From assembly GCA_964583985.1 (NCBI GenBank), contig CAZOYD010000029.1:1-39773 (forward strand): 39,773 bases of DNA, written 5' to 3'. Numbering within the stretch: the first letter of the stretch is position 1; each line of letters begins with the position of its first letter. A model generated the notes under the pieces. It was not told the origin of the DNA, did not search any database, and saw only the letters and a list, made by a program, of their open reading frames with translations. Source of the DNA: an uncultured archaeon. Lineage in GTDB: Archaea; Asgardarchaeota; Lokiarchaeia; Sigyniarchaeales; SOKP01. The position numbers were made by a program, and so were the translations under genes. Below are positions 1-25,838 of this stretch, piece by piece.

Positions 1-69
1 CAAACCAGAACCATAAAATTATAATCAATAAGCACATTTTCTTAAGTATCCTATTCTGATGTTGATATA

Positions 70-978
70 ATGCCCGATTTTTTAATTATTAGTAGCACAG
101 AAGACTTAGCATCAATGAATATACGTGAAAGATTATTAACTTCTTCTCAATATCATTTCCACAAGATTGATTCCACGTGGCACGATAATTTAATTTATGA
201 ATTTATAGCTTTTGATGAACAAGAAGAACGAAATTCACAAATTGAAGGAAACAGAATCTATTTAGGTCTAACTAATACTTCTTTGATACATTTAAATGAT
301 CTCAAGTTAGCTGAAACCATATTTAATTTTGATTACGTGATATTTGCAAGTCGTCATAGATCGCAAACATCCCGACCCGCATTACTAGTCCATTCTACGG
401 GAAATTGGGGGAATGAGACTGAATATGGAGGGAATCCTAAAGATCTATCAATTACTAGTGCTTTACTGCGTAAAGCAGGTTATATATCATTAATTTTCAA
501 TTCTCAAAAAATAAAATTAGAAAAATTTGCGATTGATGTTGAGGTAACTCATCATGGTCCAAGCGTCTTACCTAAACCCTTAATTTTTATGGAGTTAGGA
601 AGTAGTGAGGCGGAATGGAACGATATTGTTGCGGCTAAAGTGGTCGCTAATAGCATAATCGAGACAATCTTGAGATTTCTAGATTACAATGTGAATAAGG
701 ATCATGAAATTGGGTTAGGTTTTGGAGGAACTCATTATGCTCCCAATTTCAGCAGGCTAGAGCAAGCAAACAACATTGCTTTTTCATTTATATGTCCAAA
801 GTATTTTATAAAAGATTTGGATAATTCCATGATCAATCAAATGATTAAAAACACGATTGAAAAGATAAATTATTTTGTTATAGATTGGAAAGGAACTAAT
901 TCAGAAGAAAAACAACATTTGCTTCATATTTTGAACGAATTCGACATCCCTATTAGAAAAACTAAAGATTATAAATAA
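70..978 (+). CDS. dtdA: Archaeal D-aminoacyl-tRNA deacylase (DTD2/GEK1 family)
   Basis: Motifs FASRHRS..RPALLVHSTGN, EVTHHGP, FMELGSSE and GFGGTHYAP are typical of DTD2. Confidence 0.9.
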   Translation: MPDFLIISSTEDLASMNIRERLLTSSQYHFHKIDSTWHDNLIYEFIAFDEQEERNSQIEGNRIYLGLTNTSLIHLNDLKLAETIFNFDYVIFASRHRSQTSRPALLVHSTGNWGNETEYGGNPKDLSITSALLRKAGYISLIFNSQKIKLEKFAIDVEVTHHGPSVLPKPLIFMELGSSEAEWNDIVAAKVVANSIIETILRFLDYNVNKDHEIGLGFGGTHYAPNFSRLEQANNIAFSFICPKYFIKDLDNSMINQMIKNTIEKINYFVIDWKGTNSEEKQHLLHILNEFDIPIRKTKDYK

Positions 979-18128: not shown

Positions 18129-19232
18129 TCAATATTTAGAAGGCTTTTTGGATTTTATTTTTGTTTTTGGTATACTCTTTGCCCTCATCAGAGATTTTTC
18201 AAACTCTTTTTTTTCACTCAGAAAGCGAGATTTATCACTTTCAAGTTTTTCTCTTTCCCTTTTTATATCATTCTTTTCATCATGTATTTTAGATTTTTCT
18301 CTGGCTAAGGATCTTTCGGTATCTCTAATTTCAGCCGCAACTTTTGCTCTTTCGTTTTCCAAGCTTTTTATCTCTGAATTTAACCGTTTAATTTTATCTT
18401 CTAGATTATTTACCTTATTCTGGTTGGAATAATATTGATTTTCGTATTTTGGAATCTTATTTTCAAGTTCTTTAATTTTTGAGTCAAAATACGTCTTTTT
18501 TCTTTCTAACGACTTTATTTCTTCTTTAGATTTGTTTTTCTCTTTGTCAAGTGACTCCCGTTTTTTTTGAACATCTCGATTTAAAGATTTTAATTCAGTT
18601 TTTTTGATACGATCTTTTTCTCTTTCTTCGAGTAACTTCTTTTTTTCATCTTTAATCCTGTTTTTTTCATCGGTAATATTTCTATTCAGATCGTTAATTT
18701 CTTTATTAAGATTATCTCTAATTCTTGTTAAATCCTTTATTTCATTCCTCAAATCCATTAATTTATCTTCTAAATCATTGATTGTTCTTTCAATAGCGCT
18801 TTCTCTTCTTTCCATACCAGGAATTTTAGTTTTGATTTGTTGCAAGCGCTCTTCTGCTTTTTCTTTTTCTTTCCTTAAGGCTTGTTTTTCTTGATCAATA
18901 TTATCTTTAATTCTTTCCAAATTTTGTTTGTATTGTTTCCCTTTTTCAATCTCGTTATTGATGTTTTCCAAATCCTTTTTTAGTTTTTCATTTTGTTCAA
19001 TGAGATTTCTAAGCTCGATTTCTTTTTCTTTTCTCTTCTTTTCAATACTTTCAATATTGTCGTCATAATCTTGAAATTTTTTTACAACCTTTTCCCATTC
19101 CTCTTTTTCTCTGTTTAATTTAATTCTCTCTTCTTTTATTTTCCTAAGTAATTTTGGGTCCGACACTACCCCTAGGTCCTCATCCGGAGTTTTTTCTCGA
19201 ATTTGTTGTTTGGGAATAGGTTTTTCATCCAT
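18129..19232 (-). CDS. Long Lys/Glu-rich coiled-coil protein
   Basis: Near-continuous heptad pattern over about 320 aa with no evident globular domain. Confidence 0.8.
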   Translation of the reverse strand: MDEKPIPKQQIREKTPDEDLGVVSDPKLLRKIKEERIKLNREKEEWEKVVKKFQDYDDNIESIEKKRKEKEIELRNLIEQNEKLKKDLENINNEIEKGKQYKQNLERIKDNIDQEKQALRKEKEKAEERLQQIKTKIPGMERRESAIERTINDLEDKLMDLRNEIKDLTRIRDNLNKEINDLNRNITDEKNRIKDEKKKLLEEREKDRIKKTELKSLNRDVQKKRESLDKEKNKSKEEIKSLERKKTYFDSKIKELENKIPKYENQYYSNQNKVNNLEDKIKRLNSEIKSLENERAKVAAEIRDTERSLAREKSKIHDEKNDIKREREKLESDKSRFLSEKKEFEKSLMRAKSIPKTKIKSKKPSKY

Positions 19233-19362: not shown

Positions 19363-19800
19363 ATGGATTTTGATGACGAATTTGACGAGGAATTTGATGA
19401 AGAATTTGATGAGGATTTCGATGAAGATCTAGACGAAGATTTAAAGGATGATTCAGAAAATTTATCTGAGCCTGCTACTAGCTCAATCACGGATGAAGAA
19501 CCTAAATCTAAAGTTCCAAATCAAATTCCAGAAGGAGAAAAAATATCAATCTTTTTTATGTCAACAATAGGTCCTGGAGAGAAAAAACAAAAATTATTGG
19601 TAAATACAGGAAATACTGTAGGAGCAATCAAAGAGACAGTAGCTAATTTATTTGGATTAGATCCAAATGATTTTCATTTATCTACTGGCGGAATCACTCT
19701 GGATGAACCGTCTACACTGAGCGATTATGGTATTAGGGATGGAGATGACATTTTATTGATTCCAGCAAGTACTGCAGGACTATATTTAATAAAATCATAA
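19363..19800 (+). CDS. Ubiquitin-like protein A (pro-form) with long acidic N-terminal repeats; C-terminus IPASTAG|LYLIKS
   Basis: Beta-grasp pattern TVGAIKETVANLFGLDP..FHLSTGGITLDEPSTLSDYGIRDGDDILLIP; paralogue of 21617..21952. Confidence 0.85.
   Translation: MDFDDEFDEEFDEEFDEDFDEDLDEDLKDDSENLSEPATSSITDEEPKSKVPNQIPEGEKISIFFMSTIGPGEKKQKLLVNTGNTVGAIKETVANLFGLDPNDFHLSTGGITLDEPSTLSDYGIRDGDDILLIPASTAGLYLIKS
19369..19440 (+). repeat. In-frame 12-nt tandem repeat (6 copies) encoding (F/L)D(D/E)(E/D)
   Basis: tttgatgacgaa tttgacgaggaa tttgatgaagaa tttgatgaggat ttcgatgaagat ctagacgaagat. Confidence 0.85.
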
Positions 19801-19801
19801 T

Positions 19802-20599
19802 TTATTTTCTTTCTTTTCTTGATGGGATAATAGCTATTTCATCGTCATCATCAATATCATATTGTTTTACTTGAGATTTTTCATCTAATAAGATACCTCC
19901 AGATGATAGTACGAAATCCTCTTGAAGATAATCGAACAATATTCCAATTCTGTCTTTAAGCTCTGCTATGAAATCGGATTTTTCGATAATTATAATTTTT
20001 GTTTTCTGCCCCGGTTCAAGAAGAGATCTAATGTAAACCCTTAGTTTGTGTTCTAATCCAAAAGGAGTTAATGAAGGAGAATATATGATTTGTTCGTCAG
20101 ATTCCTGTTGAGATTTAAGCATGTTATCAATTAAATCTTTTCTTTCAGAAGCTTCAAAATAGAGCATTTCTCTAAGAAAAAAGATCTTATCCATTTTTGA
20201 TAATTTTAAATTATCTATCTTATATAATTCTTCTTTATCAAATTCCGTGAAAATAAACTCATCGATTCTCGAAATTTCTTCATAAGATTCATCAGAATTG
20301 GCGTAGTGATCAATTAAAGGCATCGCTTCAAAATAGTCCTCAATAAGCTCTGGGGGTATATTATCATTTATTTTCTTTTTTAGAGAGTATTTATCTTTTG
20401 TAGAATTAATCTCCGTTACATTGGTATTAGACTGAATAATAGTATATATTGTACTAGATGATAAAACAGATACGCTAGATATTGCTATAATCATAAAAAT
20501 AGAAAAATTTTCAATTTTTAAAAGGAAGAAAAACAAGTATATAAATGCAAAAACAACATAAAAAGCAATAGTCCAATATACTCGAGTATTTTTCTTCAT
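19802..20599 (-). CDS. Membrane-anchored protein (2 N-terminal TM) with a C-terminal Ubl domain lacking a terminal Gly
   Basis: Two hydrophobic helices, then EPGQK..IAELKDRIGILF..FVLSSGGILLDEKSQVKQYDIDDDDEIAIIPSRKERK, homologous to the flanking Ubls. Confidence 0.8.
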   Translation of the reverse strand: MKKNTRVYWTIAFYVVFAFIYLFFFLLKIENFSIFMIIAISSVSVLSSSTIYTIIQSNTNVTEINSTKDKYSLKKKINDNIPPELIEDYFEAMPLIDHYANSDESYEEISRIDEFIFTEFDKEELYKIDNLKLSKMDKIFFLREMLYFEASERKDLIDNMLKSQQESDEQIIYSPSLTPFGLEHKLRVYIRSLLEPGQKTKIIIIEKSDFIAELKDRIGILFDYLQEDFVLSSGGILLDEKSQVKQYDIDDDDEIAIIPSRKERK

Positions 20600-20677: not shown

Positions 20678-21355
20678 TCATCTTTTTTCACCAAAAATTA
20701 ACTCTTTTAGTTCATAATACTTTTTATGATCCAATTTGAATAGCAGTCTTTTTTTATTGCTTTCAAATTGAACTAATTGTAAATCATGTAAAATTTCTAA
20801 ATATTTTTTAACAGTATTATAATTTTTCTTGAGATTATTTGAGATATCTGATACTTTTAGGGATTCAGTTTGATCTATCATAAATTCAATTATTTTTTGT
20901 ACAATCTCTTGTTTTAAATAAAAATATGACTCATCTAATTCTGGATTTGAATCATAGATGAAAACAATCCTTTGATTTTCAATTTCTCTTGATCGCGTGA
21001 ATTGGAACTTTTCTAAACAGGATAGGTGCCAGAGAGCTTGATTGCTTCCAATGTTAATAGCTCTCATAATTTCATTGATATTTGATGGATTTTTTTTAAT
21101 ATAATTAAAAATTTCATTTCTAATGGGATGCTCAATTATATTATTTTTCATTAATTTAGTTCCAGGAATTAACCGTCGTTTTTTGATAAGATCTTTAATA
21201 GTCTTTTCAATTTTATTTTTATTTAAATAAGGTTTAGCTCTTGTCCTATTATTAATATAAACAACTATGTCTTCAATTGAAAAGAATGGTTTCTTCTTTA
21301 AATAATCTTTAATTAAGCCTAAGATAAGAGGCTCAACCTCTTCTGGAGTGCTCAT
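20678..21355 (-). CDS. Winged-HTH transcriptional regulator (tandem ArsR-like wHTH)
   Basis: RNEIFNYIKKNP.NINEI...WHLSCLEKF and VSDISNNLKKNYNTVKKYLEILHDLQLV. Confidence 0.8.
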   Translation of the reverse strand: MSTPEEVEPLILGLIKDYLKKKPFFSIEDIVVYINNRTRAKPYLNKNKIEKTIKDLIKKRRLIPGTKLMKNNIIEHPIRNEIFNYIKKNPSNINEIMRAINIGSNQALWHLSCLEKFQFTRSREIENQRIVFIYDSNPELDESYFYLKQEIVQKIIEFMIDQTESLKVSDISNNLKKNYNTVKKYLEILHDLQLVQFESNKKRLLFKLDHKKYYELKELIFGEKR

Positions 21356-21616: not shown

Positions 21617-21952
21617 ATGAGCTTTGATAATAACGATTTTGATGAGGAATTAGAACCAGTTAAGTCTAAAACCCCGTCAAGTAAAGTACCCTCGACAGGA
21701 AAAAAGGTGACTCTATATTTCATGTCTACCATTGGTCCTGGTGAAAAGAAAGAGAAACTTACAGTAAATGACGCTAATCAAATAGGTGATATCAAACAAA
21801 CATTAGGAAATCTATTTGGGCTTAATCCAGATGAATTCCATCTCTCTTCAGGTGGAAGAACAATGGATGAAAGTAATCAATTAAAAGATTATAATGTAAG
21901 TGATGGCGACGATATTCTATTAATCCCTGCGAGTACAGCGGGATACTTTTAA
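21617..21952 (+). CDS. Ubiquitin-like protein B (pro-form); C-terminus IPASTAG|YF
   Basis: Ubl core IGDIKQTLGNLFGLNP..FHLSSGGRTMDESNQLKDYNVSDGDDILLIP; SD GGAGTGA; first gene of the E1-E2-JAMM-RING run. Confidence 0.88.
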   Translation: MSFDNNDFDEELEPVKSKTPSSKVPSTGKKVTLYFMSTIGPGEKKEKLTVNDANQIGDIKQTLGNLFGLNPDEFHLSSGGRTMDESNQLKDYNVSDGDDILLIPASTAGYF

Positions 21953-21983: not shown

Positions 21984-22019
21984 AAGGGCTTTAAGCCCTT
22001 CAATTTTTTTTATTTTTTT
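21984..22019 (+). terminator. Hairpin plus U-tract between Ubl B and E1
   Basis: AAGGGCT-TTA-AGCCCTT perfect stem followed by CAATTTTTTTTATTTTTTT. Confidence 0.6.
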
Positions 22020-22030
22020 GATTAAAATTA

Positions 22031-23266
22031 ATGGTGATATTAGTGAAAAAAGAATCAGATTTTTTTGCAAAAGGAATGTCGGCAGAAGAAAGAGATTTAT
22101 ATGATCGTCAATTTCGCCTTGAAGGATGGTCTCAAAAATTAATTAAAAACTCTAGAGTACTAATTGCTGGAGTAGGAGGATTAGGGTGTGAAATTGCTAA
22201 GAACTTAGCCATGTTAGGTGTTGGTCATATAGATCTTGTTGATTTAGATATAATCGAACATTCGAACTTTAACCGACAGCTTCTTTTTATTGGGGCAAAA
22301 TTAGGAGAACCTAAAGCTATCGCAGCCGCCAAAAAATTACTTGAAATTAATCCTAACATCACCGTAAAAGGATATCATACATCCTTAGAAAGATTAAATC
22401 CCTCCCTATATCATGAAGCAGATGTCATTATTGGGGGTCTTGATTCAATGAATGCGCGATTAAACTTGAACACTCAATGTGTACGATTTAGAAAACCTTT
22501 AGTAGATGGAGGGGTATCTGGTTATCATGGTCATATTTATACCATCTTTCCTTATCGAAATGCTTGCTATGAATGTAATCCACTACCGGTATTAGAGAAT
22601 GATGAAATGGCAGCTTGTACTGTAGTTGGGATCCCTCGAAAAAGGATTCATTGCTTATTTAAAGGAGATATGGCTTTTAAAGAGAAATTTGATAGGGATC
22701 CTAGTCCCAAAGATATAAATGATATAAAATATATTCAGAAAGTCACAAATGAATTAGTAAATCAACATAATTTCCATCCCGAATTTACTGAAGATGATAT
22801 CGTAAAAATTATTGATCGTCATGATCCTGGTATCATTACAATTAATTCAGTTATTTCTGCATTAGAATCTCATGAGGCAGTGAAGATAATTCACTGGAAT
22901 AATGGACATAAAGGATTAGGAGAACCTATTACAAATTATGTTATTTTTAATGCAATGACAATGAAATTTTATCATATTGAAAAGAGGAGAAATCCAGATT
23001 GTGCTCAATGTGGAAAAAATGTAAGGAGAGTTGTAATAAATATAAGGCCTAGCTCCCCTTGTGCAAATATAATAAAAACATTAGAGAAAAATGGATTTCA
23101 ACTAGATCCTGAGCTAGAACCTTTGATAACCTTACTAGATTTCAATGATATCATAATAGTAGATCTAGAAGAGAGTGTTAAAGAAAATAATCTTAGAAAT
23201 TATGAATTTTTAACGATTGCGGGATTTAAAGGGGGCGAAGTTTATGTTACCCTCAAATTAAAATAA
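22031..23266 (+). CDS. E1 ubiquitin-like activating enzyme (ThiF domain plus catalytic-Cys domain, UBA3/UBA2-like); start may be GTG 22043
   Basis: YDRQ, GVGGLGCE, DLDIIEHSNFNRQLLF, LDSMNAR, PLVDGG, CYEC, AACTVVGIPR..IHC (catalytic Cys), CAQC, and a C-terminal probable ubiquitin-fold domain. Confidence 0.92.
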   Translation: MVILVKKESDFFAKGMSAEERDLYDRQFRLEGWSQKLIKNSRVLIAGVGGLGCEIAKNLAMLGVGHIDLVDLDIIEHSNFNRQLLFIGAKLGEPKAIAAAKKLLEINPNITVKGYHTSLERLNPSLYHEADVIIGGLDSMNARLNLNTQCVRFRKPLVDGGVSGYHGHIYTIFPYRNACYECNPLPVLENDEMAACTVVGIPRKRIHCLFKGDMAFKEKFDRDPSPKDINDIKYIQKVTNELVNQHNFHPEFTEDDIVKIIDRHDPGIITINSVISALESHEAVKIIHWNNGHKGLGEPITNYVIFNAMTMKFYHIEKRRNPDCAQCGKNVRRVVINIRPSSPCANIIKTLEKNGFQLDPELEPLITLLDFNDIIIVDLEESVKENNLRNYEFLTIAGFKGGEVYVTLKLK

Positions 23267-23324: not shown

Positions 23325-23852
23325 ATGAGTATAAGAAGTAGTCGGGTTTCCCGAGATTTCGCGGGTTTAAAAAAAATGGCACAAAATGGAACTATTGTTC
23401 AATTAAAACCTTTTAATCCAAAAAATAAGAGTATTGATCACTTAGCGATTACAATAAAAGGGCCGAAAGGGACGGCTTATGCAGGAGGTTTATTTAAGTT
23501 GGAAATGAAATTTCCTGCGCAATATCCTGGACAACCACCTTTTGTAAGATTGCATACACCGATATGGCACCCTAATTTTTGGCCAAAACCGAGTGAATAC
23601 AAGGGACAAAGAAATATTTGTTTAGCTTTAGTTGATCCTTCATTAGTTGGCAAAAAAGGAGGATGGAGTCCTTCAAAAACAGCTGTAACCATTGTACAAG
23701 CAATTATTGCCATGTTAAATACTCGAGGAAAATATGTTAATCCGACTGATGTTTTTAATAAAAAAGCAGCAATAGAAATGATGAAAAATCAAAAATTATT
23801 TGAGAAAAAAGTTAAAACTTTGGTAAAGAAATACGCTAACGAAAAGTGGTGA
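23325..23852 (+). CDS. E2 ubiquitin-conjugating enzyme (UBC fold)
   Basis: IKGPKGTAYAGGLFKLEMKFPAQYP..PP, IWHPNF...NICL, WSP. Confidence 0.93.
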   Translation: MSIRSSRVSRDFAGLKKMAQNGTIVQLKPFNPKNKSIDHLAITIKGPKGTAYAGGLFKLEMKFPAQYPGQPPFVRLHTPIWHPNFWPKPSEYKGQRNICLALVDPSLVGKKGGWSPSKTAVTIVQAIIAMLNTRGKYVNPTDVFNKKAAIEMMKNQKLFEKKVKTLVKKYANEKW

Positions 23853-23859
23853 GTCTAAG

Positions 23860-24657
23860 ATGAAGATTGATGACAAAAACAGTGAAACAATTCGGGATAC
23901 GATTAAACAAAAAATAAAGGAAAAAATCAAGAAAGAAATACTTGAAGAAGTATATACCGAGCTACAACTCGAAGAATTACAAGAAGAAATAACTGCTGAA
24001 ATTTTTGATGCAAAACCTTTAGGGCATTCAAAAGATATAAAAACATACTTAGAACCTATTCCAATGGAACCTGTAATAACTATAGCTAAAAATGAAAGAA
24101 TTGAAGCAAAAATACAAATAACTGTAAAAGCTATCCTTAAAATTTCAAGCCATTCGTTGAAATATGCGAATTCTAAAATTAGGAAAGAGAACTGGGTTGA
24201 GGTAATAGGATTACTCTCTGGTAGATATGACAATGGAATACTTTATTTAGAAGATGCGTATCCAATGGGTCATGGTACTGCAGTTTATGCTGAAATTAAA
24301 GATTATAATAACTTTACAAGAGCATATGAAGACATTGTAAAAAATAAGCAATTTATCTGTGGATGGTATCATTCGCATCCCTCATATGGATGTTTCATGT
24401 CTAAAGAAGACTTAGGAACTCAAAGGCGATATCAGAAATTTTGGGATAAATCAGTTGCCCTTGTAATTGATCCATATCAAATTAACGGAAAATCTATCGG
24501 CTTTGAGATCTATCGTGCAAATTTTAATACAAAAAAATGGTTTTCCGTGCCATTTGATATCAAAGGAAGTTTAGATGTAAGGATGCTACCCGAAATATTA
24601 GAATTCATGAATCCTATTATTGAAGGTAAACCTGCCTACTTAGAATATGATGAGTGA
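23860..24657 (+). CDS. JAB1/MPN (JAMM) metalloprotease, CSN5/Rpn11-like
   Basis: EVIGLLSG, GWYHSHPSYGCFMSKED (HxH-x10-D), TQ..YQ, ALVIDP. Confidence 0.93.
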   Translation: MKIDDKNSETIRDTIKQKIKEKIKKEILEEVYTELQLEELQEEITAEIFDAKPLGHSKDIKTYLEPIPMEPVITIAKNERIEAKIQITVKAILKISSHSLKYANSKIRKENWVEVIGLLSGRYDNGILYLEDAYPMGHGTAVYAEIKDYNNFTRAYEDIVKNKQFICGWYHSHPSYGCFMSKEDLGTQRRYQKFWDKSVALVIDPYQINGKSIGFEIYRANFNTKKWFSVPFDIKGSLDVRMLPEILEFMNPIIEGKPAYLEYDE

Positions 24658-24686: not shown

Positions 24687-25838
24687 ATGGTAAAAAAAAA
24701 ACAGAAAGCGTTAGTAATTATTCTCATTGTTTTTTCTGTAATAGGTATGATTCATGGTTTAATTTCAGCTTCATTAAATAATTTTTTAACTTGGCTATTA
24801 ATTGGATTGTGGTTAATATTTACAATAAAAATTTATAATAATATCAAACGACACCGTGAGTTTAATTCCCCCCATAATACGGCTTTTTTCGTGATCATTC
24901 CTTTATTAATAGGAGTATTTTATTCTATCTGGGGATCATATACAGGAATTTTAGGCGAAAACTTGATATTAGGTTCTAATTTCTATTTTAGTTTATGGAG
25001 TCTCATATTTGGTTTGCCTTTTGTAATTTATGGTTCACACTCAATCTATCGATGTTTTAAAAAATATAATGTAATCTATTTTGGAACCAAGTCAGTGAAA
25101 GCGAAGGGGTTAGGCTATTTTTTGTCAATTTCAGTTATTATTGCCATCATTTCTTATTGGATTGCTTTTTATAATGTGAGTGAGTTTTATTCACCATTAA
25201 CACCACTCCGTTTTTCATTGGATCTTAACCTTTTGCTCCTACTCATTATTACTATTTTCAACCTAATCATTTTTGGCTTTATAAGTAACCGTTCCAATAT
25301 ACCAGAATTAACACGTGATTATATCGCACAACGTACTAGGCGAATTAATAACTTAACTACCCCATCAACACAAAATAACAGTACTCGTACAAGAACTCAA
25401 ACAATTCAAACACCAACAAGAACAACCAGAACAACACGCACAACCACCACAAGACCCCGATCTATAAATGCACCTACATCTAGTTCTCGATCAACGAAAA
25501 CGCAAACAACTAAATCAGTTCGATCTCAAAGAACAATAAATGCCCCTAAAATTCGGGATTTTAGCAAATTTAAACCCAAAGGTTCGTTAATCTCAGAAGA
25601 CGACTTCAAGTGTATATTCTGCTTTAAACTACCTAAACTTCCAGAGGATAAAAATAAAGGAATCGTAATCTGTCCAAACTGCAGATATCCTGCTCATGCT
25701 GACGAATTTATAGCTTGGATGAAAACTTCAAATCTTTGTTCTCGTTGCAGTGCTCCCATTCCGTCAGGTTTTAGACGAAATCCTCGGATTATCACTACAA
25801 AAAATTATATTGCTATCTACAGACATTTTCTAAAATAA
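24687..25838 (+). CDS. Polytopic membrane protein (about 6 TM) with Thr/Arg-rich linker and C-terminal RING-like domain; putative membrane E3 ligase
   Basis: Six hydrophobic segments; CIFC...CPNC....HADE...W.....CSRC; last gene of the Ubl-E1-E2-JAMM operon. Confidence 0.8.
   Translation: MVKKKQKALVIILIVFSVIGMIHGLISASLNNFLTWLLIGLWLIFTIKIYNNIKRHREFNSPHNTAFFVIIPLLIGVFYSIWGSYTGILGENLILGSNFYFSLWSLIFGLPFVIYGSHSIYRCFKKYNVIYFGTKSVKAKGLGYFLSISVIIAIISYWIAFYNVSEFYSPLTPLRFSLDLNLLLLLIITIFNLIIFGFISNRSNIPELTRDYIAQRTRRINNLTTPSTQNNSTRTRTQTIQTPTRTTRTTRTTTTRPRSINAPTSSSRSTKTQTTKSVRSQRTINAPKIRDFSKFKPKGSLISEDDFKCIFCFKLPKLPEDKNKGIVICPNCRYPAHADEFIAWMKTSNLCSRCSAPIPSGFRRNPRIITTKNYIAIYRHFLK

Follow-up and report, generated by a model that had tools for sequence, protein, structure and literature searches.

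What kind of modifier does a Lokiarchaeial ubiquitylation locus encode, and at which residue would the mature protein end? These questions are raised by a stretch of DNA from an uncultured Asgard archaeon with a source genome of 3.8 Mb, which we analyzed as one window of 39,773 nucleotides (contig CAZOYD010000029.1 of assembly GCA_964583985.1). In it, the gene at 21617..21952 (+), an open reading frame of 111 amino acids plus stop, encodes the precursor of a small ubiquitin-like (Ubl) protein, here called Ubl B, and genes for an activating enzyme (E1), a conjugating enzyme (E2), a JAMM protease, and a polytopic membrane protein follow downstream in the same orientation. An original prediction, made from the letters of this DNA, had described Ubl B as a masked modifier with mixed UFM1, NEDD8, and SUMO features that lacks the equivalents of Ile44, Lys48, and Lys63 in ubiquitin (Ub). 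Our analysis makes it very probable that Ubl B is the precursor of a ubiquitin-family modifier of an Asgard-specific "AG-type" subfamily, built from an N-terminal arm, a beta-grasp core, and a P-A-S-T-A-G tail, and handled by the pathway proposed below. As such, the tag stands apart as a variant among the archaeal forerunners of ubiquitin, with no kinship to UFM1.

The most direct clue to the mature end is found within the window itself. Ubl B closes with ...DGDDILLIPASTAG-YF, while its paralog, the free Ubl A (19363..19800 (+); 145 amino acids, with a longer acidic arm, the same ...IPASTAG end, and a LYLIKS tail), closes with ...DGDDILLIPASTAG-LYLIKS. By BLASTP, the two proteins share 59% identity over 100 amino acids, with 14 of 14 residues identical before Gly109 and none after it. 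The identical run up to the glycine followed by unrelated tails, as had been seen by eye, is thereby upheld, and an identity that stops in this way is far beyond chance. The tail P104-A-S-T-A-G109 itself spans 21926..21943 (+), with Gly109 as the predicted mature and activated end and Ala108 in place of Ub Gly75, and Tyr110-Phe111 (21944..21949 (+)), which is unconserved across relatives, would be a removable C-terminal cap or propeptide.

The same boundary recurs throughout the family. Among the Ubl B homologs (834 at E<=1e-3 in a database search), the pattern I-P-[AS]-S-[TS]-A-G is kept in all of the 120 best, about a third of which stop right there, and the tails beyond the glycine are variously YF, YI, RLI, KLI, CFE, K, IF, others, or none. 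In fact, P-x-S-x-A-G ends all 156 relatives, remote representatives included, of which 46 terminate exactly at ...AG and the other 110 add one to six residues of about 45 kinds. An alignment of 48 family sequences, reaching down to about 39% identity and with a mean column identity of 39%, has invariant columns only at G40, G80 (Ub G47), P104, A108, and G109, whereas 17 of the 48 have a gap at column 110, which is mixed in the others. Moreover, an untailed Ubl that stops after Ala-Gly is found in relatives with the same nine-gene synteny. A functional role of the YF tail as a C-terminal motif, for example as a penultimate-Tyr, proteasome-docking signal, was considered and rejected in view of the untailed relatives, the many kinds of tail, and the untailed syntenic operons.

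More conspicuously, some family members are encoded as tandem precursors. Two metagenomic proteins, P0121 (372 amino acids; L011:59-1177) and P0122 (250 amino acids), carry three and two units, respectively, each consisting of an acidic arm with the S-K-T-P motif, the beta-grasp domain, and ...STAG. At the junctions, the acidic arm of the next unit begins right after ...STAG, and the last unit closes with a short tail. The layout of these head-to-tail repeats is the same as that of polyubiquitin precursors. Because only 1.2-kb contigs exist, P0121 and P0122 are without genomic context. Altogether, five independent lines of evidence mark Gly109 as the predicted mature C-terminus, and the claim that this glycine is a masked mature end, conserved among homologs, has thus withstood a wider sampling: it is invariant (48/48), the chain stops there in many relatives, and the tandem junctions and the untailed syntenic Ubls place the boundary at the same residue. 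Cleavage would then fall after Gly109, as we infer from these comparisons.

Several unusual relatives deserve mention beside this family. P0146 ends in ...I-P-T-S-T-A-G-G-F, i.e., with Ala-Gly-Gly, and may represent a step between the AG and GG types, while P0154, which combines the N-terminal half of the Ubl with a C-terminus resembling class-II aminoacyl-tRNA synthetases, is probably a chimera of assembly or frameshift origin. An AG-type Ubl also stands at the C-terminus of larger proteins of 255-570 amino acids that end exactly or nearly at ...STAG (P0127, P0128, P0131, P0132, P0143, P0152, P0157, and P0167; also P0126, P0133, P0138, P0158, and P0169). A zinc-ribbon-like domain (Y-N-C-P-K-C-K ... 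Y-P-F-P-Y) is a recurrent partner in these, and by way of its Ubl end such a protein might be conjugated in its entirety, as cargo.

We then relate Ubl B to ubiquitin residue by residue. HMMER aligned residues 47-101 with Ub 14-68 without a gap, and the ubiquitin number is therefore the Ubl B number minus 33. Structural alignment of the predicted model placed residues 31..108 on Ub 1..75 with a root-mean-square deviation (rmsd) of 1.3 Å, and the two proteins differ in length only at the beta1-beta2 loop, which is three residues longer in Ubl B. In the HMMER alignment, Ub Ile44 corresponds to Ser77 (21845..21847 (+)), a serine in 41 of the 48 members, Ub Lys48 to Arg81 (21857..21859 (+)), which is Arg, Val, or Ile in the family, and Ub Lys63 to Asp96 (21902..21904 (+)), which is Asp or Asn; at the latter two positions a lysine occurs in 0/48 members. 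Both the HMMER and the structural alignment reproduce the by-eye assignment (Ile44 to Ser, Lys48 to Arg or Ile, Lys63 to Asp), and the absence of these three ubiquitin residues is confirmed. Further toward the C-terminus, Ub His68, Val70, Leu71, Arg72, Gly75, and Gly76 correspond to Leu101, Ile103, Pro104, Ala105, Ala108, and Gly109, the last of these pairings being obtained by sequence, predicted-structure, and profile alignment alike. A NEDD8-like alanine at Ub position 72 was rejected as a family trait, as position 105 varies among the 48 members (Ala in 19, Val in 9, Ser in 8).

Other side chains are well kept. Lysine is found at K44 (the Ub Lys11 position in the Pfam alignment) in 39 of 48 members, with arginine in 7 more, at K47 in 43, at K60 (the Ub Lys27 position) in 45, and at K18 of the arm motif S-K-T-P in 40. 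Given the conservation of these four lysines, chain formation by the AG-type tag could therefore still occur. The hydrophobic residues Leu101 and Ile103 and the loop residue Ile39 are likewise conserved in the 48-member alignment.

With regard to fold and family, Ubl B divides into an arm and a core. The N-terminal arm (residues 1-29; 21617..21703 (+)) is predicted to be disordered, with a predicted local distance difference test (pLDDT) score of 48-64, and consists of an acidic Phe/Asp/Glu stretch, then a conserved K-S-K-T-P, and then G-K-K. Close relatives without exception have S17, P20, K23, P25, G28, and K30; P20 is kept in at least 90% of the wide set, and the arm is present in frame in each unit of the tandem precursors. 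For the beta-grasp core (residues 30-104; 21704..21928 (+)), which has a family-specific long beta1-beta2 loop (S-T-I-G-P-G-E-K), the AlphaFold2 model built on the 48-sequence alignment predicts strands at 30-37, 44-51, 74-78, 81-83, and 99-104 and a helix at 56-67, with the tail 105-111 flexible. A beta-grasp fold had been part of the original prediction, and the model, together with its superposition on ubiquitin over 75 residues, is in agreement with it.

Foldseek, a comparison that the same prediction had proposed, returned the ubiquitin of Caldiarchaeum subterraneum as the top matches (6fno, 6fnn, and 6fj7; E ~1e-8), followed by ISG15, ubiquitin, NEDD8, SUMO1, and Hub1. A VIA structural search over representatives gave Z scores of 14.3 for the ISG15 C-domain, 13.4 for the Dsk2 UBL, 13.3 for ubiquitin, and 12.6 for SUMO. 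UFM1, URM1, and SAMP are absent from both lists of the 50 best structural matches, all listed VIA matches having Z >= 11.8, and these three folds thus receive no backing from the searches. Sequence profiles point the same way. Ubl B matches the Pfam ubiquitin model PF00240 (E 2.2e-7; score of 31 bits, cut-off 25.4), as do 48/48 family members, and Ubl A and the C-terminal domain of the membrane protein at 19802..20599 (-) also lie above this curated threshold, whereas 0/48 members match either the Ufm1 or the Urm1 model of Pfam, with E values up to 10 allowed. The SUMO-like Rad60-SLD model is matched weakly by 42/48 members (Ubl B with 15.4 bits, below the cut-off of 23.8), and ThiS marginally by 5/48, with a best E of 0.01. 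In public databases, the family proteins bear the label "ubiquitin-like domain-containing protein". A di-glycine end equivalent to Gly75-Gly76 is replaced by Ala108-Gly109, with alanine in 48/48 members, and we therefore rank the tag as a variant within the ubiquitin family.

The genes downstream of Ubl B encode the enzymes of the locus. The E1 (22031..23266 (+); 411 amino acids; ThiF E 1.6e-57) is UBA3/UBA2-like and finds SAE2 (5e-37), UBA3 (1e-35, over residues 35-352), and then UBA1 as its sequence matches, with UBA5 at 4.5e-15. Both CxxC zinc motifs of UBA3 are conserved in it, its catalytic Cys196 (22616-22618) aligns with that of UBA3 (A-A-C-T-V-V-G against P-M-C-T-I-A-S), and a Pfam scan of the protein saw no rhodanese or sulfurtransferase domain. 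The E2 (23325..23852 (+); 175 amino acids; PF00179 E 3e-26) belongs to the canonical UBC fold family, has UBC enzymes as its matches in the protein data bank (PDB), and is the single UQ_con match in the source genome. Next comes a JAMM/MPN+ metalloprotease (23860..24657 (+); PF01398 E 8.8e-14) with an intact H-S-H-x7-S-x2-D motif, whose best solved relative is the Caldiarchaeum Rpn11-like protein (6fjv; E 9e-16), followed by Rpn11 and CSN5; it is the probable maturase and deconjugase. The polytopic membrane protein (24687..25838 (+); 383 amino acids), with a C-terminal Cys/His zinc-finger region and a position conserved in syntenic loci, is a candidate RING-like ligase (E3). That a conjugatable modifier is served by the adjacent E1, E2, and JAMM, as first proposed, is thus supported by the Pfam and sequence matches of its neighbors, and by its enzyme types the system is therefore of the Asgard/Caldiarchaeum type of eukaryote-like ubiquitylation operon. 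Beyond the window, 14 of 15 loci from eight further GTDB families have the Ubl beside an E2 and an intact JAMM, and the same 14 also carry a ThiF-type E1; the remaining one, a 7.6-kb contig of family f16, has Ubls only.

One residue of the E1 stands out against the tail of the tag. In UBA3, Arg190 acts as a gate that excludes ubiquitin Arg72, and the titles of 3dbh, 3dbl, and 3dbr, PDB entries among the Foldseek matches, refer to this Arg190/Arg72 gate. Where UBA3 has G-N-A-R-V-I, the operon E1 has G-H-I-Y-T-I, which places Tyr170 (22538-22540) at the Arg190 position. The gate residue is Tyr (G-H-x-Y) in 16/16 AG-type E1s, i.e., those of the 14 loci, one close relative, and the window, but Gln (G-N-[VI]-Q-V-V) in 2/2 Asgard operon E1s that accompany a GG-type ubiquitin (...TRTEGG, with Arg at 72), and Gln is also the gate residue of Uba1. 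These two GG-type E1s are shorter (open frames of 355-368 amino acids), end in a ubiquitin-like domain, and are without the long UBA3-like insertion. Pattern scans found no E1 in 16 kb around the GG-type ubiquitin of genome G026, which has a UEV/E2-like gene there, or in the whole 11-kb contig of genome G091, and the gate comparison therefore rests on two GG-type loci. The Tyr/Gln covariation is consistent with a co-evolution of tail and gate.

We propose the following pathway on the basis of homology and gene order. The Tyr-Phe cap would be cut after Gly109, most probably by the Rpn11-like JAMM of the operon, whereupon the UBA3-like E1 would adenylate Gly109 and load the tag onto Cys196. Transfer to the single UBC-type E2 would follow, and then ligation to target lysines, probably at the membrane, by way of the polytopic zinc-finger protein, with the JAMM also reversing the modification. 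In such a scheme, the penultimate Ala, the Pro at Ub-71, the lack of an Arg at Ub-72, and the Tyr gate of the E1 may form a matched recognition set, which would separate this pathway from Gly-Gly ubiquitins, such as the one for which this genome has a gene at another locus.

We followed the distribution of the tag with an AG-family profile in a sample of 300 Asgard genomes. Strong members (E 1e-36 to 1e-48) occur in the families f1, f2, f4, f7, f12, f16, f18, f24, and f30, so that the AG type is present in nine GTDB families and about 120 of the 300 genomes. Only weak matches were obtained in f5, f14, f15, f21, and f26 and in the genomes of genus g35 of f7 (G026 and G074), and in the five genomes that we read (G001, G023, G026, G028, and G091; f14 left out) these are GG-type ubiquitins. 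In the source genome, an orphan GG-type Ubl of 87 amino acids is found on contig C3:76577-76837 (-) (the same as L001:1486-1749 (-)). It ends in ...ATQAGG-F, has I-F-K-G-K in the Ile44/Lys48 region, and is 29% identical to the AG-type tag. Across most f1 genomes it is 89-96% identical, and as a query it retrieves only f1-f4, the families of the window's own class. The gene is not in an E1/E2 operon. On the same contig, 7 kb away at L015:16053-17169 (-), a 249-amino-acid MoeB/ThiF-type E1 without the catalytic-Cys insertion adjoins a Roadblock/LC7 gene and is a candidate alternative activator for the orphan ubiquitin.

The orphan is the ortholog of Lokiarch_37670, the "Lokiarchaeal Ub" of PMC9192718 (Supplementary Data 1), and the E2 in the alignment of that study is the ortholog of the operon E2. 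Judged by orthology, the published "Lokiarchaeal ubiquitin" is a gene other than the one for the operon-encoded AG-type tag. [quoted passage not shown] We can tentatively picture two pathways in Loki-type Asgards, kept apart by the E1 gate, in which a Gly-Gly ubiquitin would act with ESCRT UEV domains and the Ala-Gly tag would be the true substrate of the operon, although we would not yet favor this picture. The proposed pairing, Pro71/non-Arg72/Ala75 with Tyr against Arg72/Gly75 with Gln, is put forward as a suggestion with a similar degree of hesitation.

Some points weigh against the AG-type reading and the pathway drawn from it. The fold comes from structure prediction (mean pLDDT of 79.5, ~90 in the core). 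Cleavage, charging by the E1, which enzyme acts as the protease, and an E3 function for the membrane protein are each deduced from homology and gene order. That membrane protein has no Pfam match, a zinc-finger domain included, and its Cys/His pattern was read from the translation. The gate covariation draws on only two GG-type loci, and the AG-type loci are related and non-independent. In addition, the orphan GG-type Ubl might be a further client of the operon's E1 and E2, since a single UBC-type E2 was found in the genome.

Alternative identities of Ubl B have to be weighed against the same body of evidence. The original prediction had seen an affinity to UFM1, and a UFM1-lineage member or mosaic would owe its ending and its N-terminal strand to common descent. 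Here, the spacing of L-I-P-A-S-T-A-G/YF does equal that of the UFM1 ending quoted in that prediction, where one reactive Gly is likewise capped by two residues. However, the contrast of the Pfam models (Ufm1 0/48, PF00240 48/48), the best folds (Caldiarchaeum ubiquitin, ISG15, ubiquitin, NEDD8, and SUMO, with UFM1 in neither top-50 list), an E1 that is much closer to UBA2/UBA3 (1e-35 to 1e-37) than to UBA5 (4.5e-15), an E2 of the UQ_con type and not UFC1, and a JAMM instead of a UfSP-type Cys protease all speak for the ubiquitin family, and a GG-type Asgard ubiquitin can be aligned to the family profile from one end to the other. The affinity to UFM1 is accordingly withdrawn, and common descent with it strikes us as exceedingly improbable. 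A sulfur carrier of the ThiS/MoaD/SAMP type, activated by a ThiF protein for cofactor or tRNA thiolation, could appeal to the marginal ThiS matches noted above and to an activating enzyme of the ThiF superfamily, but this E1 has the eukaryote-type catalytic-Cys insertion, aligns with UBA3 over 35-352, and is devoid of the domains expected for sulfur transfer, while a UBC-type E2 and a JAMM isopeptidase share its operon. We rejected this candidate on the catalytic-Cys insertion together with the E2 and JAMM, and its probability is close to nil.

The two further alternatives accept the fold and dispute the function. Were Ubl B a non-conjugated adaptor, like the UBLs of Dsk2 and Rad23, its glycine would be structural and its tail never removed. 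Shuttle-factor UBLs match the fold about as well (Dsk2 UBL, Z 13.4), and only 1 kb away the same family supplies a Ubl domain that is not conjugatable, in the membrane protein at 19802..20599 (-), whose C-terminal ubiquitin-family domain (residues 196-255; PF00240 E 1.3e-7) leads to an end, ...IIPSRKERK, that is shared by its orthologs P0233 and P0240. This end has no Gly, and the domain is not conjugatable for that reason. Yet it is specifically the glycine that this paralog has lost, showing what relaxation looks like, whereas in the Ubl B family the Ala-Gly is invariant and everything beyond it variable or absent, head-to-tail poly-Ubl precursors exist, and the linkage to E1, E2, and JAMM is strict across nine GTDB families. 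An adaptor is thus very unlikely. Less easily settled is the proposal, likewise made at the outset, that Ubl B is a strictly mono-modifying and non-degradative signal rather than a chain-forming or proteasome-targeting tag. The lack of lysine at the Ub Lys48 and Lys63 positions (0/48) and the Ser in place of the Ile44 hot-spot (41/48) would suit such a signal, and a likely ligase that is a membrane protein suggests regulation or sorting of membrane proteins. Against it, lysine is conserved at K44, K47, K60, and K18, the hydrophobic Leu101 and Ile103 (Ub His68 and Val70) and the loop Ile39 are retained, and SUMO-type chains use a lysine in the N-terminal arm. A strictly mono-modifying role is a real possibility for the AG-type tag, if not one on which we would settle.

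Some other elements surround the tag gene. Upstream of it lies a divergent winged-helix protein of the ArsR type (20678..21355 (-); PF01022 E 2.2e-8), with its synteny kept. Between the Ubl B stop and the E1 start, a terminator-like 7-bp GC hairpin is followed by T8 and T7 runs (21984..22016 (+)). Terminator-like sites number 2 observed against 0.4 expected, with a fold z of only -1.7, and a partial terminator at this site could raise the abundance of the tag above that of its enzymes. Further away, a coiled-coil protein of 367 amino acids (18129-19232 (-)) has I-R-E-K-T-P near its N-terminus, resembling K-S-K-T-P of the Ubl arm, and its L013 ortholog keeps I-R-E-K-T-P and also ends in K-I-K-S-K-T-P-S-K-Y; K-T-P occurs only 3 times in the 13,699 residues of the long open frames of the window.

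As for what the AG-type tag means, Asgard ubiquitin operons serve as models for the origin of the eukaryotic ubiquitin system, and across many Asgard lineages what the operon encodes is no Gly-Gly ubiquitin but a tag from a subfamily of its own, which is strongly conserved and marked by an invariant Ala-Gly, a conserved arm, poly-tag precursors, and a matching change in the E1 gate. If the tags are handled separately, E1-gated diversification of Ubls predates or parallels eukaryotes. If there are two pathways, an orthogonal E1-gated splitting comparable to that of ubiquitin, NEDD8, and SUMO would already exist in archaea, and the "Lokiarchaeal ubiquitin" studied so far would not be the conjugated tag of the operon. 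This question of early Ubl diversification is directly testable with recombinant proteins and with Lokiarchaeia now in culture. Here, it should be kept in mind that Gly-Gly-remnant proteomics would miss all conjugates of an AG tag.

The type of ubiquitylation operon is itself already known (PMC5654768; PMC9192718). What is added here are the tandem precursors, the Tyr/Gln covariation of the gate, the distribution at family level, and the recognition that the published Lokiarchaeal ubiquitin is the other gene. In the searchable literature, in which coverage of subscription journals is thin and silence is no proof of absence, we found no description for Asgard tags of an Ala-Gly end, a conserved arm, tandem precursors, or an E1 Tyr gate. 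The closest characterized system is that of Caldiarchaeum, whose operon encodes the pro-ubiquitin CsUb, an E1-like and an E2-like protein, a small RING finger protein, and CsRpn11 (PMC5654768; PMC6043591). There, CsRpn11 removes a nine-residue propeptide from pro-ubiquitin, and only then does E1 activation take place (PMC5654768; PMC6043591). Both systems share a precursor with a short peptide past the reactive Gly and a cluster of E1, E2, and Rpn11-like JAMM, and Foldseek ranks CsUb first for the AG tag (template modeling score of 0.77-0.83, depending on the target). In contrast, CsUb ends in ...TVGG and not in Ala-Gly, is 23% identical, and is without the conserved 29-residue arm and the longer beta1-beta2 loop, and its small soluble RING protein has a polytopic membrane protein as its putative counterpart here.

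Within Asgards, the GG-type ubiquitins resemble the AG tag in belonging to the ubiquitin family, in their Ub-E2-E1 operon (read in G023), and in their optional short tails, such as the SPKN tail of a Helarchaeial pro-ubiquitin (bioRxiv 10.1101/2023.07.25.550441). By hhalign, the AG-family profile aligns with a GG-type Asgard ubiquitin end to end through the last Gly, with a probability of 93.8%. These ubiquitins (...LYLITRTEGG) differ in their length of 76-80 amino acids without an arm, the Arg at Ub-72, the Gly-Gly end, and a Val at the Ile44 position, and their E1s differ in the Gln gate and in having no long UBA3-like insertion. The Lokiarch_37670 type, with its ortholog in the same genome, shares the tail pattern A-x-x-A-G (ATQAGG/F compared with ASTAG/YF), but has a Gly-Gly end, keeps I-F-K-G-K, and lacks the N-terminal arm.

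Among the eukaryotic systems, NEDD8 and UBA3 offer the nearest parallel on the side of the enzyme. Over its whole length, the operon E1 has its greatest similarity to the catalytic subunit UBA3, and discrimination would fall at Ub-72 through the residue aligned with Arg190, where the tag has a non-Arg residue (Ala105). However, NEDD8 ends in Gly-Gly and has no arm, the UBA3 gate is Arg where here it is Tyr, and the locus has no gene for an APPBP1-like partner. UFM1 is similar by analogy of layout only, with one reactive Gly that follows a non-Gly residue, a Pro five residues upstream of it, and a propeptide of two residues, and it differs in its UBA5, UFC1, and UfSP enzymes, which here are of the UBA3, UBC, and JAMM types. 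Finally, SUMO has a Gly-Gly end and depends for its maturation on Ulp/SENP-type Cys proteases, while it shares with the AG-type tag a flexible arm before the beta-grasp domain, the need for C-terminal maturation, and, in SAE2, the top sequence match of the E1.

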